From positions 52,787 to 116,786 of the forward strand of contig JAVHQC010000032.1 of assembly GCA_036170915.1 (NCBI GenBank): 64,000 nt of DNA, read 5' to 3'. Position 1 is the first letter of the stretch. Each line of letters starts with the position of its first letter. This DNA is from Cyanobacteria bacterium auto_48_18. Its GTDB lineage: Bacteria > Cyanobacteriota > Vampirovibrionia > Obscuribacterales > Obscuribacteraceae. The notes below the pieces were generated by a model, which was not told where the DNA came from, ran no database searches, and saw only the letters and a program-made list of their open reading frames with translations. Below, piece by piece: positions 39,393-50,650 of this stretch. The translations under genes and the position numbers were made by a program.

Positions 39393-40808
39393 TTAGTGCG
39401 GCGGCATGCCAATGAAAACAGGCGGCTTTTCGGCAAACTTTAATTTCTTTGATATGGTCGCGTCATCAATATTGTGAGGCTTCAGGTAGACGTAGTAACT
39501 ATCGTTGCGCTCCACCAGGTCATCTTTCGGTTGACTGCTTGCGCTCACCAGCATGTCGTTGCTTATTCGAGCATGCAAATAGTAAGGAATAAGTTGCGTG
39601 TAACCAGGTACGTTAGGCTTAAAGGCATATTTGAGCAGTCGCTCACCAGTCAAAGCCGAAACAACTGCTGGTGAGTTATTGAGCGCCTTGAGGTCAATCT
39701 CCTGCCAACTATTACCCACTTGAATAAAAAGACGCACCACAGGTTTCATTAAAAACATAGCTTTTTCTGGCTTAGTATTTTTGAGAAAAAGAGTTAAAAC
39801 ATATCCACCGTCTGCAGTCATCTCGATATCGCGAACGCCCGCTTTTAAGTCGCTGTTCGCCAGGTCTTCCAGGGCCTGCCGCTGATCGAGCCTGGCATTA
39901 ACAACGCTTTGCTGATAACTTGCTACGGCCAAATTGGCAATATAGAGCAAAGACAGCAGCGGTACCAACAGCAATACCATGCGGCCAACATACTTATCAA
40001 AGCCTATGCCCAGTTTGACATTCTCTTGCGCCGATTGACTAGCAGAAATAGCGAAAATGCTTTTAACTGTGTCGCCGACATCGAGTAGCTGCGGTGATCT
40101 AGTCGAAGTCTCTGTACCTGGCTGTTGCGAATGAGTCAACATTTCAGCTCGACCAGCAGTCATGGTCAAAACCCTGTCGGCTAAAGAGGCAATATCCTGG
40201 TTGTGAGTAACCACAATCAAAGTGAGACTGAAAGCTTTGCGAATATCAACAAGAAGCTGCAATATTTCGCCTTCAGTTTCGCCATCGAGGTCGGCTGTAG
40301 GCTCATCGGCCAATAAAACACTGGGCGAATTGATGAGCGCGCGAGCGATGGCCACACGCCTTTGCTCACCGCCAGACAGCTCACCCGGATAGGAATCAAT
40401 ACGCTCGGCTAAACCAACTCGCACCAGTAATGCTCTGGCTCGAGCATAGGCCTCCTTTTCTGTAAGAGCGCCGCTAACGAGTGCAGGCAAAGCAACATTG
40501 TCTATGGCACGCAAAGCGCTTAGCAAACCAGCAAATTGAAAAACATAACCAATGGTGCCGTTGCGAAAACCAGCCAACTGATTAGCATTTTGTTGCCAAA
40601 CGACCGTATCGCCAATTTGAATGGAGCCGCTACTTGGGCGGCAGATGCCACCAGCCATGGCCAGCAGCGTAGATTTGCCAGACCCGGAGCGCCCCACTAT
40701 TGCTAGAAATTCGCCCGGTTGCGCTTCAAAATTGACATCAATGACAGCATTAACCTGAGCGTGGCCTGAATATTGCTTTGTCAGTTGCGAAACAGAAACT
40801 GTGCTCAT
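39393..40808 (-). CDS. LolD/MacB-type ABC ATPase fused to a TM helix and a C-terminal extracytoplasmic domain
   Basis: Walker A GRSGSGKST, LSGGEQRRV, ADEPT, VTH; then TM MVLLLVPLLSLLYIANLAV and a ~170-aa domain ending GMPPH. Confidence 0.88.
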   Translation of the reverse strand: MSTVSVSQLTKQYSGHAQVNAVIDVNFEAQPGEFLAIVGRSGSGKSTLLAMAGGICRPSSGSIQIGDTVVWQQNANQLAGFRNGTIGYVFQFAGLLSALRAIDNVALPALVSGALTEKEAYARARALLVRVGLAERIDSYPGELSGGEQRRVAIARALINSPSVLLADEPTADLDGETEGEILQLLVDIRKAFSLTLIVVTHNQDIASLADRVLTMTAGRAEMLTHSQQPGTETSTRSPQLLDVGDTVKSIFAISASQSAQENVKLGIGFDKYVGRMVLLLVPLLSLLYIANLAVASYQQSVVNARLDQRQALEDLANSDLKAGVRDIEMTADGGYVLTLFLKNTKPEKAMFLMKPVVRLFIQVGNSWQEIDLKALNNSPAVVSALTGERLLKYAFKPNVPGYTQLIPYYLHARISNDMLVSASSQPKDDLVERNDSYYVYLKPHNIDDATISKKLKFAEKPPVFIGMPPH

Positions 40809-42016
40809 TAACCACCGTCCTGCATCATACGGTAAGGCTCTTCAGCGCTAGCGCGCAAGGCCGGAATCAGAGCGCCCAGCAGTCCGCCGAGCATGGCTAG
40901 CACCGCACAAGCTGCGCCGCCATATGCCATTTCGCTCAGGGCAGGCCAGATAAAATCAATATGCAAAGTTTCGAGGTAATAGACCAGAGAGCGTTGAAAA
41001 ATCAACAGAAGCACCGCACCAAATATGATACCAGCCACACCTCCCAGACCTGTGGTAAAACAGGCCTCGGCTAAAAGCATTTTGACAATATCAGCTTGCT
41101 TTGATCCGATTGCCGAAAGCACGCCTATTTCGCGGCGCCTTTCGCCAATGATGGCAGAAAAAAGCAGACCTACCACAATTAAGGAGCCGAGCAGTATGAG
41201 CGTAGCAAACACAAGCATGGCGCTCAGTAAAGCGCTTGTGGTCTGCCTTGTGGAAGTAACAATAGTAGCACCAGTAATTACTTTCACTCCTGCAATTTGC
41301 GAAATGGCAAAGCGCATCTGCTCTGGAGTGGTGCCAAAAGCTAAGCGCACAAATATGGCCGAACAACGCTGGCGATCAAATGTTGGAATGGTCGAAACGC
41401 CAGCGATTTTTCCTTGCGCCAAATACGCGGCGGTATCATAAGTGGCAAACAAAGAATCATCAAGTGGCCCCACTCCGCTTCTAGCAAGCTTACCGTAAAC
41501 AGTAGCAGTGGTGGCACATGGTTCTAACTCTTCGCCAATGGCTTCATCACGCCGAGCGCCGGCAATCAGGTCTCCCGCTTTCATTACTCTAGGTAATTTT
41601 GTTTGCAGCCACGGCATCACAGTAAAATCGCTGGCCGGGTCAAAAGCAATTAAATTTGCCTTGTGCTCAGGCATGTGCACCATCATCGGTATGCGATAAA
41701 TTGTTTGAGCAGCTATTTTTTCTACTCCATGCAGACTGCCAATCTGCTTCAGTAAATTAGTGCTCAAAGTTGAGTCGGTAGGTTGCACCGTAAGCAATGC
41801 GCTGGTGATATTAACCATAGCATCAGCCGGCACCACTACCAGATCTGCACCCATCTGCGCAAAGCTGCGCTCCATGCTGGCTTGAATGCCGCGGCCAACA
41901 ATAAACGAGGCAAAGATAGCGCCGCTGACTAAAGCCACAGCCAAAATTAGCATTAGTGTGCGCGTTGGCCTGCGCAAAATATTCTGGCAGGCCAGGCGCA
42001 AGAAAATACTGATCAT
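40808..42016 (-). CDS. MacB/FtsX-type ABC permease
   Basis: NILRRPTRT N-terminus, MGADLVVVP, large periplasmic loop, ERRREIGVL.AIG, three C-terminal TMs. Confidence 0.9.
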   Translation of the reverse strand: MISIFLRLACQNILRRPTRTLMLILAVALVSGAIFASFIVGRGIQASMERSFAQMGADLVVVPADAMVNITSALLTVQPTDSTLSTNLLKQIGSLHGVEKIAAQTIYRIPMMVHMPEHKANLIAFDPASDFTVMPWLQTKLPRVMKAGDLIAGARRDEAIGEELEPCATTATVYGKLARSGVGPLDDSLFATYDTAAYLAQGKIAGVSTIPTFDRQRCSAIFVRLAFGTTPEQMRFAISQIAGVKVITGATIVTSTRQTTSALLSAMLVFATLILLGSLIVVGLLFSAIIGERRREIGVLSAIGSKQADIVKMLLAEACFTTGLGGVAGIIFGAVLLLIFQRSLVYYLETLHIDFIWPALSEMAYGGAACAVLAMLGGLLGALIPALRASAEEPYRMMQDGG

Positions 42017-42017
42017 A

Positions 42018-43796
42018 TTAGAGGGTAGTGCAACGACTATTTCTTAAGTGTTCTTTCTTGGTCGGGATAATCACGCAGTCATGGTGCCCACCATAATTGG
42101 GCAGGTATCCCAGCGGACGAAGTGAATCATCTTGGGTAAAGATAAAAGCACCACTCTCCTGTCGTTGAAAACCACTAAAGATTTGAACAACAAATTTGCC
42201 ATCATAAGAAACCGCCATGGTCTGGCAATCAACACCAATGTTTTTAAATTTCTTGATAATCTTCCATGTCTTCGTATCAACCACACAGCACCCGCTTTTG
42301 GCAGGCTTTGCATTCATCACCGAAACAAACATTTTGCTGCCGTCCATAGAGAAGCAGAGATGGAACGGGCTGGGAAAGTCGCCTACCCATTCTGGATCTT
42401 TCACATAAGTAATCTTTTTCCAATTGCGCGGATCAGCATCAGTTGTGTCAAACACAGCCATATTATTCTGTTCGATATTATTCATCATGGTGAAGAATTT
42501 GCCGTCTGGCGAAAAACCGGCTTCATGGCCGACGCATTTAACGTCTTCAAAATCAATTTCCCATGTATTAGGATTCTCGTGCAACTTAGTAACCGCCAGA
42601 TTACCAGGCGATCCTTCCGGATTATGCAGGCAGGCTACAGGCTCCCACGTCTCGCGATCGACAATGACTGCACAAGAAAGCATGCGAATAATTAGAGCAG
42701 AATATTTGTTTCCCGGATGATGCACCACCGCATCTAGACCAGAGAGCCCCTTCATATTGTCTCCCGGTATTTCACCGTTCGAAACACGATTCTCGGCCAT
42801 CGGAACCATTTCCCAGTCGATCTTATTGCCCTTAGTGCCTTGCAAATCATACTTGCCGATTTCTGGGGAAATTCTCAATTCTTCTATTCGCAGCTTGCCA
42901 CCTTTGCGCCAGTTATCTTTCAAATTCTTATCCGGCTCTCGACCAATCCAATCGGCGCGGAAAGCCTTAAGCGCCGTCGTCTTAGCCGTGCCCGAAACAC
43001 GATTGAAAAATGCAGCAATATCTTTTTGACCATCAGCGGCAGCAAAGCCATTAGCATCAGGGAAGATTGTGATGTGTACGCCCAAACCGATACCGGTTGT
43101 CTCTGCCACATCCTCCATTTTGTTCATTTCGGTGCCATCAAATTCAACTCTGTAAATATGATTACCCTGACCCCACTTACCAAGCATGCCGTGGTCTTCT
43201 ATTGAAGTAGGTAAACCATAAAGTGAAACGTTCCTGCCACCCTGGGTGGAATTGACGAATTCGAAGCCCTTGCGCGGATTAGCTGAGGGGTATGCTGCCA
43301 GGTGATGTGAAATCGGGCAGGAATCGCCCCAGGCCCAGTAAGGAATGGACGACAATGTTGTACCGTGCTTTAAATCAACCACATGAGTACCGCCGCCCAA
43401 CTTTTGCGGCGTCAAATACAAATAATCGCCCAGCTCTTCTGTCGACTGATCAAATCTCGATGCGTCCACAACTTCAACTTTCGGTGAAACTAAATCGGGC
43501 ATTTTTACTTTGCCAACCATAGCAAAGAGATTAGCTGAAGCGAAACCGGCGGCCCCTGCGGCTCCAGCGAAAAGCATCTCTCTGCGCGTGAACCCTGGCA
43601 CGAAAATTTCTTGCATCATCTGACGCAAATCAAATTTGCGACGAGGCTCATCGCCAGCGCCATACTCAGCCAGCCACTGAAAAAGAGTAGCTTCGTTAAT
43701 ATCGTGCTTGATGCACAATTCATTAATGTCAGGGCTGCTATTGGCTTCGCGCAGAATAAATTTTATCTGCTCCTTGGTAAATTGCTTCTCTTCCAT
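42018..43796 (-). CDS. Thiocyanate dehydrogenase (TcDH)-like copper beta-propeller with a Tat signal and an N-terminal IS3-transposase-type HTH
   Basis: Colinear matches to TcDH as I recall it: WGDSCPISHHLAAYPS, NSTQGG, GLGVH, DGQKD, YDLQGTKGNKIDWE, GHEAGFSPDG, PFH, YDGKFVV, GHHDCVIIP...SRCTT. FTRREML twin arginine; ATG 43796 with GGAGAG SD. Confidence 0.85.
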   Translation of the reverse strand: MEEKQFTKEQIKFILREANSSPDINELCIKHDINEATLFQWLAEYGAGDEPRRKFDLRQMMQEIFVPGFTRREMLFAGAAGAAGFASANLFAMVGKVKMPDLVSPKVEVVDASRFDQSTEELGDYLYLTPQKLGGGTHVVDLKHGTTLSSIPYWAWGDSCPISHHLAAYPSANPRKGFEFVNSTQGGRNVSLYGLPTSIEDHGMLGKWGQGNHIYRVEFDGTEMNKMEDVAETTGIGLGVHITIFPDANGFAAADGQKDIAAFFNRVSGTAKTTALKAFRADWIGREPDKNLKDNWRKGGKLRIEELRISPEIGKYDLQGTKGNKIDWEMVPMAENRVSNGEIPGDNMKGLSGLDAVVHHPGNKYSALIIRMLSCAVIVDRETWEPVACLHNPEGSPGNLAVTKLHENPNTWEIDFEDVKCVGHEAGFSPDGKFFTMMNNIEQNNMAVFDTTDADPRNWKKITYVKDPEWVGDFPSPFHLCFSMDGSKMFVSVMNAKPAKSGCCVVDTKTWKIIKKFKNIGVDCQTMAVSYDGKFVVQIFSGFQRQESGAFIFTQDDSLRPLGYLPNYGGHHDCVIIPTKKEHLRNSRCTTL

Positions 43797-43944
43797 GCTT
43801 CTCTCCAATCTGTTTAAACTGACAGCTGATCAAGAGGTTCCCTGTAAAACAGCGAGCAGAATAAAATTTATCGCTAATAAATCGACATGTAGTATTGCAC
43901 ATTTATGGCGCTATACTGCTTTCAAGACATGCAGGTACCCTTCC

Positions 43945-44964
43945 ATGGCAGTCAGTGCAGTTATTGATAACGTGGCCTCTCATCCAATTTTGAGCACAGC
44001 AGCGCGAGTTGCAGCTAAGTCTAAACATGTGCGATTAAATAAAGACGCTCTCGACGATATCAGCAAGACATTAAGCCGGCCAGAACTTGATAACGCGCCG
44101 CACCACTGGCTAAGCAGTGCGCCAGAACCGGCCAAAATTTATTTTGATAGCCTTAGTTTAGATCAACGCATTCTCTTTTTAGTCGTTTTTCATACCATCG
44201 GTTTTTGCTATTGGGGTGACCCCAAATGGCGAATCTTTAGCCCCACTGCTGATACCACATTTAATGGCGCGCGGGCACTTTTAATTAGCCTTAGCGCTGA
44301 GCCAAACTTCCTCAATCTCTCGCATTTGTCAGAGCTTACCGAGCTACAGTTTAAGGCCATGCTGGCCGGCTTTAAAAGTCAAAATATAGATTCGCTGCTA
44401 TTAATGAGCGAGCGTCACTCCTTTCTTTCTGCGTTAGCAACTCGACTTGGCAAAGACAAGAATTTTCTAAAAGAATTGATTGATCCAAATCAAAATGCTC
44501 TCAATGCAGCCCTAGCAATTTCACAACAATTGCCTGGTTACCGTGATGTGGCAGAATATGCTGGAGAACCAGTTATCTTTTTGAAAAAGGCCCAGCTGCT
44601 GGTGGCTGATATCAACCATGCATTAGTACGCTCAGGCAATGCCGGATTTTCATGTATGCATGAGCTCACAGGCTTTGCTGATTACAAATTGCCACAGCTC
44701 TTAAGGCACCAGGGCATCATTGACTACGACAATATGCTGACAGAAAAAATAGATCAGGGTCGCGAACTAACACCAGGTAGCGAAGAAGAAATTGAAATTC
44801 GCGCTGCTACACTTATTGCCATCGAATACATCAAACGTTCGCTGGCCAAGGTCAATATTCTTACTACCGCTGCCGAAATTGATGCCAAGTTGTGGATGCT
44901 GGCGCAAGATCTAAACCCGGCTGAAGTCAAGCCGTATCACCGCTGCCGCACGGTTTTTTACTAA
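43945..44964 (+). CDS. Queuosine salvage protein (DUF2419/Qng1-like queuosine-nucleotide hydrolase)
   Basis: GFCYW, FLKKAQLLVAD, LTGFADYKLPQ.L, EEIEIRA, ID..LW, PYHRCRTVFY C-terminus. Start moved to ATG 43945. Confidence 0.88.
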   Translation: MAVSAVIDNVASHPILSTAARVAAKSKHVRLNKDALDDISKTLSRPELDNAPHHWLSSAPEPAKIYFDSLSLDQRILFLVVFHTIGFCYWGDPKWRIFSPTADTTFNGARALLISLSAEPNFLNLSHLSELTELQFKAMLAGFKSQNIDSLLLMSERHSFLSALATRLGKDKNFLKELIDPNQNALNAALAISQQLPGYRDVAEYAGEPVIFLKKAQLLVADINHALVRSGNAGFSCMHELTGFADYKLPQLLRHQGIIDYDNMLTEKIDQGRELTPGSEEEIEIRAATLIAIEYIKRSLAKVNILTTAAEIDAKLWMLAQDLNPAEVKPYHRCRTVFY

Positions 44965-49647: not shown

Positions 49648-50184
49648 CTACGCAATATTGTTATCTGCTTTGTGGTCTATACCCTTGCCGTCATGGTCTA
49701 TACCCTTGCCGTCATGGTCGATTCCATTGCCATCATGTTCAATCATCGGGGGCGCAATCTTAGAATAATAGTTACCTACGCGATCCCGCGGCAGCAGCCA
49801 CTCAATCTCGTTGCGAAATAGAACGGCATCAAATTTTTCCATGGTGATATATCGGGCAGCGCCCAGAGCTCTAGCGGCTGTACGCACACCGTCAGAAAGA
49901 TACTTCGCTACCTCAACAGGCTCGTTGCTGAAGCAAACGAATGGAATGCCTTGCATGTGCGGATCGCCACGAACCCAGCGCATAAAGTCGAAAATACTGC
50001 CACCGTTCTGCAAGTGCACATCACCGATAATCAAATCAACTTCGCGTTGCTTCAATATATTCATAGCAGTGGCAAAATCATGCGCTTTAAATACTTTATG
50101 ACCAAAGCTTTCAAGGCTGTCAGTCACCTGTTTCATTGGTCCGACATGCTCCAATAGAGCGAGTATTTGAGCTTCCATAATCAA
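49648..50184 (-). CDS. Single-domain (atypical) response regulator with a C-terminal repeat tail
   Basis: DLIIGDVHL, IPFVCFS, LGAARYI receiver pattern; (IDHDGKG)n tail. Confidence 0.82.
   Translation of the reverse strand: MIMEAQILALLEHVGPMKQVTDSLESFGHKVFKAHDFATAMNILKQREVDLIIGDVHLQNGGSIFDFMRWVRGDPHMQGIPFVCFSNEPVEVAKYLSDGVRTAARALGAARYITMEKFDAVLFRNEIEWLLPRDRVGNYYSKIAPPMIEHDGNGIDHDGKGIDHDGKGIDHKADNNIA
49673..49743 (-). repeat. 21-bp coding tandem repeat (IDHDGKG), about 3.4 copies
   Basis: TGGTCTATACCCTTGCCGTCA x2, TGGTCGATTCCATTGCCATCA and a partial copy. Confidence 0.9.
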
Positions 50185-50194
50185 CTACCTATTT

Positions 50195-50650
50195 TTATTT
50201 TGCGTTCGGCGGTAAGTTTGGCTTGGTGGACACGGGCAATTCAGCTTTAATGGTTCCAGATGTTTTTGGCAAAAAGCGCAATAATTCTGTTCTGAGCATC
50301 AGAGGATCAAACTCTTCCATGACAATATACTGAGCAGCACCTAAATGGCGAGCAGTAATGCGAACACCATCACTGAGATACTTGGCTATAACAGTGGGTT
50401 CAAGACTAAGCAATACAAAAGGAATACCGCTCAGCAGCGGATCATTTTTTACCCACTGAAGAAAATCAAATACACTTCCGCCATTTTCTAAATGCACATC
50501 GCTAATGATCAGGTCGCAACGATAATCGTGCAAAATCTCTTGTGCTTGCGAAAATTTATTAACCAAATGAACGTTGTGACCCACGGCATTAAGACATGCC
50601 ACCAGCTTCTCAGCATGGTCTTTATTCTCGATTAATGCCACTACACCCAT
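50195..50650 (-). CDS. Single-domain (atypical) response regulator, paralog of the adjacent gene
   Basis: DLIISDVHLENGGSVFDFL, IPFVLLS, AKYLSDGVR, LGAAQYI. Confidence 0.85.
   Translation of the reverse strand: MGVVALIENKDHAEKLVACLNAVGHNVHLVNKFSQAQEILHDYRCDLIISDVHLENGGSVFDFLQWVKNDPLLSGIPFVLLSLEPTVIAKYLSDGVRITARHLGAAQYIVMEEFDPLMLRTELLRFLPKTSGTIKAELPVSTKPNLPPNAK

Follow-up and report, generated by a model that had tools for sequence, protein, structure and literature searches.

The window analysed here, a 64,000-nucleotide stretch of an Obscuribacterales genome (the source genome), carries on its minus strand a single open frame, 43796-42018, that encodes 592 amino acids with zero internal stops. 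The frame joins a helix-turn-helix (HTH), a linker, an internal twin-arginine translocation (Tat) signal, and an enzyme domain resembling thiocyanate dehydrogenase (TcDH), and it is the first gene of a conserved three-gene unit. The features, with the main evidence for each, are as follows.

43801 to 43806, minus strand: Shine-Dalgarno-like GGAGAG, 4 nt 5' of the start ATG.
43659 to 43796, minus strand: three-helix HTH domain derived from IS3 OrfA, aa 1-46, acidic, with the basic DNA-facing residues replaced (Pfam, model, omega, and charge table).
43593 to 43658, minus strand: linker with a predicted amphipathic helix (aa 57-64), in place of the OrfA leucine zipper (model; omega of 0.115).
43512 to 43592, minus strand: internal Tat-type signal, T-R-R-E-M-L plus 22 uncharged residues, aa 69-95 (RR invariance, fit to Z-R-R-X-phi-phi, and omega of 0.024).
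42018 to 43457, minus strand: TcDH-like beta-propeller, aa 114-592 (PDB matches, fold, and active-site residues).
40808 to 42016, minus strand: MacB/FtsX-type ABC permease, gene 2 of the conserved unit (Pfam FtsX and MacB_PCD; synteny).
39393 to 40808, minus strand: LolD-like ABC ATPase with a membrane helix and a C-terminal domain with a Met-Pro-Pro-His tail, gene 3 of the unit (domain matches and synteny).

This layout bears out a first-pass annotation of the same DNA, which had reported an uninterrupted frame with a good Shine-Dalgarno (SD) sequence at ATG 43796, an N terminus of the IS3 OrfA pattern, a twin-arginine pair at 43581-43586, and an internal ATGATG lacking an SD. Pfam HTH_Tnp_1 (PF01527) covers residues 2-64 at 38.5 bits in the full protein (cut-off of 24.1, E value of 1.3e-9) and scores 41.8 bits with aa 1-59 by itself. 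AlphaFold predicts HTH helices at residues 8-20, 24-30, and 35-45 with a pLDDT of about 76, and the full-protein model has a mean pLDDT of 73. The RR pair is residues 71-72 (43586-43581), within T-R-R-E-M-L at aa 70-75, and the 16 nt preceding the internal ATGs at 43619 and 43616 contain no SD-like word.

Among the best 120 of the 596 homologues listed, whole-query homologues fall into 19 other 90% clusters with 67-88% identity, and PF01527 is present in 16 of these 19. Whether the fusion occurs in independent genomes, a point raised by the earlier annotation, was answered in a set of 107 genomes of the Obscuribacterales, non-photosynthetic relatives of cyanobacteria: the fused N terminus is present in 19 of them from 5 genera (14 in the window's genus, including the source genome, 2 in a second genus, and 1 each in three more). 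The TcDH-like enzyme domain occurs in 42 of the 107, 19 of them fused; the other 23 have no visible HTH fusion, some on fragmented contigs. Each of the 19 fused genomes has one TcDH-like copy, split over contig ends in two of them, and because this is the sole enzyme copy, the fused form is taken to be the working enzyme. Since 23 of 42 enzyme-bearing genomes are unfused, and the unfused units inspected keep the same three genes, the HTH is dispensable across the family. Records of fused loci are mostly titled Ca. Obscuribacter, Obscuribacterales, Melainabacteria, or an unspecific cyanobacterium or bacterium. A fused gene 79% identical to the query lies at a locus (L034) titled as a Flavobacterium psychrophilum MAG and groups with the Obscuribacterales rows; an identical locus comes from a genome of the same genus, which makes a mislabelled title probable.

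The start of the domain coincides exactly with the OrfA start. When 22 further genomes matched the N-terminal profile, the matches were limited to its first 50-63 positions, and all 13 loci inspected (11 from those genomes plus two found earlier) encode free OrfA, with OrfB adjoining in 11. Elements of the donor type thus still exist in the same family. Five fused HTHs are 49-67% identical to the nearest free OrfA. The source genome's own OrfA copy scores as an IS3 transposase; its single intact-looking IS3 element (orfA plus orfB, L021:1501-2630, on contig C10 of G000) is 30% identical to the fused HTH. The score for NCBIfam transpos_IS3 here is 12.6 bits against 160, and the OrfB DDE transposase that an IS3 element requires is absent. 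A tblastn search of the 64-kb window with the source genome's IS3 OrfB gave a best E value of 0.88, and a blastn comparison found no likeness between the DNA near the fused gene and the source genome's IS3, and no IS ends, in agreement with the earlier statement that no DDE transposase or IS end lies nearby.

In an enzyme-domain tree (66 rows, IQ-TREE), the fused rows sit among the Obscuribacterales-type rows. The HTH label changes 4 times on this tree (bootstrap range of 3-5), and its well-supported branches force only 1 change. A single clade of all fusions was not rejected by an approximately unbiased (AU) test (P = 0.385; 42 rows left after 24 near-redundant ones were removed for speed), and the RR pair lies at residue 70-76 in 26/26 distinct fused loci. 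The simplest reading is one gain with possible losses or transfers. Homology and shared spacing establish, at the level of sequence, that the HTH came from an IS3 orfA, and we infer a single origin, in which an Obscuribacterales ancestor would have gained the first ~46 codons of an IS3-family orfA, joined in frame at the 5' end of its TcDH-like gene.

Searching 1.84 billion representatives with a profile of the fused HTH brought up, in order, pieces of this same fusion, a small number of proteins with several HTHs, and OrfA-like proteins; no other fusion partner of the HTH appeared among the best 150 of 8,283 matches (the first 53 read by eye). A search by words for the fused N terminus in other proteins, 325-1036 aa long, gave 1 match among 9 candidates, the method being too insensitive for a judgement on other fusions. 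One 258-aa protein (P0122) has five tandem HTH_Tnp_1 repeats and no further domain that we could see; it is possibly another domesticated OrfA derivative.

The earlier annotation had called the HTH domesticated and had asked whether it evolves neutrally; its spread and its substitution pattern uphold the former and speak against neutrality. Across 23 full coding sequences, the maximum likelihood omega was 0.038 for the 45 HTH codons, 0.115 for the linker, and 0.024 for both the RR-plus-h-region and the enzyme, and fixing the HTH omega at 1 was 162 log units worse (2dlnL = 325). Seven disjoint pairs, the safer estimate because deep pairs are saturated at synonymous sites, gave 0.037, 0.117, 0.020, and 0.041, respectively. 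Identity across deep lineages is 55% for the HTH, 80% for the enzyme, and 33% for the linker. Judged from these values, the HTH is translated and under constraint. An assembly artefact or recent IS scar is ruled out by the many-genome spread together with purifying selection. Conservation imposed by an overlapping plus-strand ORF (43708-44964) was also rejected, since the upstream genes differ among fused loci and synonymous change is equal in the HTH (0.33) and the enzyme (0.33).

Constraint of this kind bears on the proposal that the IS fragment is a passive leader, which supplied a ribosome-binding site and start on which expression came to depend, with selection now asking no more of it than to be folded, soluble, and off DNA. 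The domain does begin exactly where OrfA begins, an SD-like word (GGAG, GAGG, or AGGA, read by eye) precedes the equivalent start in 18/26 distinct fused loci, unlike the internal Met, which mostly has none, and 2/26 loci have no internal ATG ahead of the RR at all (also read by eye). Avoidance of DNA tethering would in addition select for loss of basic residues. However, the HTH omega is near that of the enzyme core and one third of that of the linker, surface positions 25 and 29 are hydrophobic in most fused rows rather than drifting to polar residues, and 19 genomes retain the domain at near-fixed length although a short deletion could spare the SD and start. We therefore regard a passive leader as unlikely.

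We compared the residues of 24 fused HTHs with those of 141 OrfA-like domains, a set drawn from 150 listed profile matches by reassigning 4 fused fragments to the fused group and excluding 5 multi-repeat proteins. Net charge over positions 23-46 is -5 to -1 in 24/24 fused domains and +2 to +5 in 141/141 OrfA-like domains, with no overlap; the 24 fused rows are not independent, as they probably have one origin. Free OrfA of the same family has a net charge of +1 to +4 over these positions (13/13). Core residues are kept in the fused HTH (T7, E9, I11, L15, E17, C28, H31, W41, and Y45), while K23 is replaced by D/E, position 40 by E/Q/D, K42 (K/R) by L/H/Q, and K44 by A/E/Q. Position 29 is R in 98% of OrfA-like domains and L/I/V in 87% of fused ones, and positions 13 and 25, small or polar in OrfA-like domains, are large and hydrophobic in most fused rows. 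The loss of several basic HTH residues remarked on in the earlier annotation is thus family-wide and amounts to an inversion of net charge. A new metal site at Cys28/His31 is disfavoured, both residues being ancestral in OrfA (79% and 89%).

In IS2, R50H is reported to abolish transposition and weaken binding and R13H to abolish both, and R37 lies within the HTH consensus (PMC3219604). By motif numbering, and not by alignment, the counterparts of these arginines here are Leu at position 42, Gln at about position 5, and Ile at position 29, respectively. OrfA is laid out, in the account of its domains in PMC2909936, as an HTH followed by a leucine zipper; in the fused protein the zipper is absent and the linker stands there instead, so that the two marks of a functional IS3 OrfA, a basic recognition surface and a downstream leucine zipper, are both lacking. 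A frameshift site and inverted repeats are missing as well. A PDB sequence search with the HTH profile gave 0 matches, a structural search with the N-terminal model (VIA) gave best Z scores of 6.3 for Brinker, 5.7 for CENP-B, and 5.6 for Tc3, which is the generic HTH level only, and an ESM Atlas search with aa 1-100 had an uninformative best value of 0.79. The three-helix fold is kept in the model, and the aligned residues show that the basic DNA-facing surface is now acidic and hydrophobic. The fused HTH has most likely lost DNA binding.

These observations weigh against the first-pass suggestion of a ToxR-like one-component enzyme-sensor, or of an HTH freed when the signal is processed, acting on its own operon through DNA binding. 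In favor of such a regulator are the HTH fold retained in the model, the presence of a sigma-54 regulator in canonical tcdh clusters as they are described in the pertinent parts of PMC6504805 and PMC5328954, the three-gene unit here being without one, and a 20-nt direct repeat (43748-43767 and 43853-43872; 18/20 identical, spacing of 105 bp, AT-rich palindromic core) that flanks the start, with one copy upstream and one within HTH codons 10-16. The repeat also flanks the start in the closest relative (L023; 17/20, identical spacing) but is absent from the other 13 of 15 fused loci tested, and 6/400 random genome windows contain one equally strong. We found no operator-like motif common to the regions upstream of fused genes, a comparison made partly by eye, and unfused units likewise have no regulator. 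With the HTH charge flipped, the basic DNA-facing positions (R29, K42, and K44) replaced, and no leucine zipper, DNA binding and a ToxR-like sensor are improbable. The fallback offered by the same annotation fared differently in its two parts: an interaction module without DNA binding fits best, whereas a translation start alone fails against an omega of 0.038 over 45 codons.

The part of the protein predicted to be exported is a TcDH homologue, and the alignment of the propeller, on which the earlier claim of a motif-by-motif match depended, is strong. Residues 114-591 match TcDH structures with E values of 1.5e-132 (8yu5) and 4.9e-124 (5f75/6i3q), all nine distinct PDB TcDH sequences are matched at E values below 1e-121, and the top 20 Foldseek rows for the predicted fold are all TcDH (E value of 7e-51, TM score of 0.86 on the target). 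Using the 13 TcDH active-site residues named in the Figure 4 legend of PMC6504805 and counting equivalents on the 5f75 alignment, we found that 12 are kept: Lys103, His135, His136, Gln156, His206, and Glu288 (K132, H164, H165, Q185, H241, and E329 here) and Asp314, His381, His437, His528, Asp529, and Arg544 (D355, H424, H479, H572, D573, and R588). All 12 are invariant in 19/19 fusions except H437 (18/19). The motif match breaks down at the thirteenth, His482, which is Gln525 here and Gln in 19/19 fusions and, by motif, in 117/121 proteins. Engineered His-to-Gln variants at this site are in the PDB (6SJI and 8YU5), and in the literature searched, the primary paper excepted, we found no account of their effect on activity. 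The tri-copper mechanism of TcDH is outlined in the relevant part of PMC9456337. The periplasmic domain is predicted to be a copper oxidoreductase of a Gln482 branch of TcDH, and because His482 is naturally Gln, thiocyanate is a candidate substrate, the best guess at roughly even odds.

In fused and unfused Obscuribacterales loci alike, the conserved unit consists of the enzyme, a MacB/FtsX permease, and an ATPase with a membrane helix and a C-terminal domain whose Met-Pro-Pro-His is conserved, and the genes flanking the unit vary between loci. Gene families were clustered and not all named; within the unit we recognised no fccAB, copCD, tatA, or sigma-54 regulator gene and no dedicated chaperone gene. 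Fused-specific sites number 4 in the ATPase (E117, K118, E389, and K454) and 2 in the permease, in a comparison of 11 fused with 12-14 unfused rows that is confounded by kinship; ATPase residues 117-118 are acidic-basic in 11/11 fused loci and variable in 12 unfused ones. Cyanase, FCC flavoprotein, and CopC were not found in the 86%-complete source genome, which does contain c-type cytochrome domains. Elsewhere in the window, a divergent gene for a queuosine salvage protein (about 43960-44964, plus strand; PF10343, 158 bits) shares its linkage to the operon with the closest relative alone. A response-regulator-like ORF (49648-50184, minus strand; family assigned by eye) ends in a 7-residue tandem repeat and adjoins a similar receiver ORF (50195-50650).

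The RR pair is invariant in 19/19 aligned fusions, its motif fits Z-R-R-X-phi-phi, and the source genome encodes TatC. The best 19-residue hydropathy of the signal region is 1.2-1.7. Cleavage by signal peptidase is possible, either at A92, invariant but with a bulky residue at -3, or at residues 86/88, which are mostly small yet lie near the RR. As a rule of thumb, standard Tat signals have their RR nearer the N terminus than 70 residues. This distance favors the view that the HTH blocks Tat recognition and that the enzyme acts in the cytoplasm, but the RR and h-region are as constrained as the enzyme (omega of 0.024), and class V substrates, defined in the pertinent section of PMC13673990 by an internal Tat signal that follows a domain folded in the cytoplasm, as in FecR, tolerate such a domain; the same section gives Z-R-R-X-phi-phi as the general Tat rule. 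A cytoplasmic enzyme is consequently very improbable. Because it precedes the RR motif, the HTH should stay cytoplasmic, and by analogy with class V we infer an N-in/C-out arrangement in which the propeller would be exported by Tat.

A further possibility is built-in Tat proofreading, in which the HTH face, acidic and hydrophobic, would bind the linker (basic and amphipathic) and the RR, keeping the signal hidden until folding or copper loading of the propeller. The charges are complementary (acidic HTH, basic linker helix and RR), the RR position is nearly fixed in all 26 distinct fused loci, and the unit has no dedicated chaperone gene. Set against this, the AlphaFold model of residues 1-100, built from only 14 sequences, has no confident packing of the linker or signal (pLDDT no higher than 50 past residue 50), conservation is lowest in the linker (33% identity), and many unfused Obscuribacterales homologues have the same amphipathic helix ahead of the RR without an HTH. 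A complex prediction of the HTH (residues 1-48) with the linker and signal (49-98) scored 0.01 and was uninformative either way. We rate proofreading as rather unlikely.

N-terminal additions are not limited to the HTH. A ~180-aa helical extension before the RR occurs in 9 of the best 120 of the 596 homologues listed, and the 7 scanned have no Pfam match above the cut-off. This extension is Ala/Glu/Arg-rich and constitutes a second, independent add-on in a separate TcDH-like group (P0075, P0078, P0083, P0093, P0096-P0098, P0102, P0104, and P0109; locus L065, titled Solibacteraceae). The recurrence of such additions in the family, including the amphipathic helix of many unfused Obscuribacterales homologues and the extended N region of canonical TcDH, points to a general anchoring or contact role on the cytoplasmic side that can be filled by different modules.

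We consider it just probable that the HTH is a domesticated, cytoplasmic, non-DNA-binding cap or contact module placed on an internal Tat signal in a FecR-like class V layout. A transposon piece, now a translated host domain under purifying selection, would have kept its fold, lost DNA binding, and gained an acidic-hydrophobic surface. Tat would export the folded propeller and leave the HTH in the cytoplasm as a folded cap and protein-contact module, which may anchor the weakly hydrophobic Gly/Ala signal helix N-in, dock the precursor on a partner, or both; candidate partners are its own dimer mate, the Tat machinery, and the co-encoded ABC ATPase. Against a contact or anchor role stand the 23 of 42 enzyme-bearing genomes without the fusion, an HTH only 55% identical across deep lineages, and possible signal-peptidase cleavage at A92 or residues 86/88. 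More tentatively, the transposase DNA-binding surface may have been rebuilt for protein binding, giving a mobile-element HTH a new use as a trans-membrane checkpoint on a class V Tat substrate of the enzyme type; from the cytoplasm it would link the periplasmic enzyme's export, or its loading with copper, to the ABC machine or Tat. This is conceivable but doubtful.

In the literature searched, which left most subscription papers outside its scope, we found no description of an HTH-TcDH fusion and no link between Obscuribacterales and thiocyanate. The parts are each known; what seems to be undescribed is their combination, along with the change undergone by the HTH surface. It is unusual for a piece of a mobile element to be recycled to serve its host, and this fusion lets the passage of a bacterial insertion-sequence domain into a host enzyme be traced: the family still has IS3 elements of the donor type, there are orthologues both with and without the HTH, and the surface change is readable residue by residue. 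The orthologues also form a natural pair for the effect of an N-terminal domain on Tat export, the fused protein is a candidate for a second kind of class V Tat substrate, an enzyme and not a regulator, and the Gln482 TcDH-like enzyme is common in Obscuribacterales (42/107 genomes).

The fused enzyme is 41-44% identical to the TcDH of Thioalkalivibrio paradoxus (5F75) and Pelomicrobium methylotrophicum (8Q9X), with a shared propeller fold by Foldseek. Canonical TcDH likewise has an extended N region before the RR, which is at residue 34 in T. paradoxus, and ABC genes downstream of tcdh, as described in the relevant part of PMC5328954. The fused enzyme differs in its N-terminal HTH, its Obscuribacterales host, and its Gln in place of His482, as in the engineered 6SJI and 8YU5. 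Membrane-bound regulators of the ToxR/CadC type have the same order of HTH, one membrane segment, and periplasmic domain, but the fused protein has a different HTH class, a Tat-type signal, and an acidic HTH without the OrfA DNA-contact residues. FecR has an anti-sigma role. The fused protein has in common with class V Tat substrates of the FecR kind, as set out in the section cited above (PMC13673990), a folded N-terminal domain, an internal RR signal, and a folded domain behind it. FecR, however, is a signalling protein, whereas here Tat would export a copper enzyme, and the domain left inside would be one that comes from a transposon.
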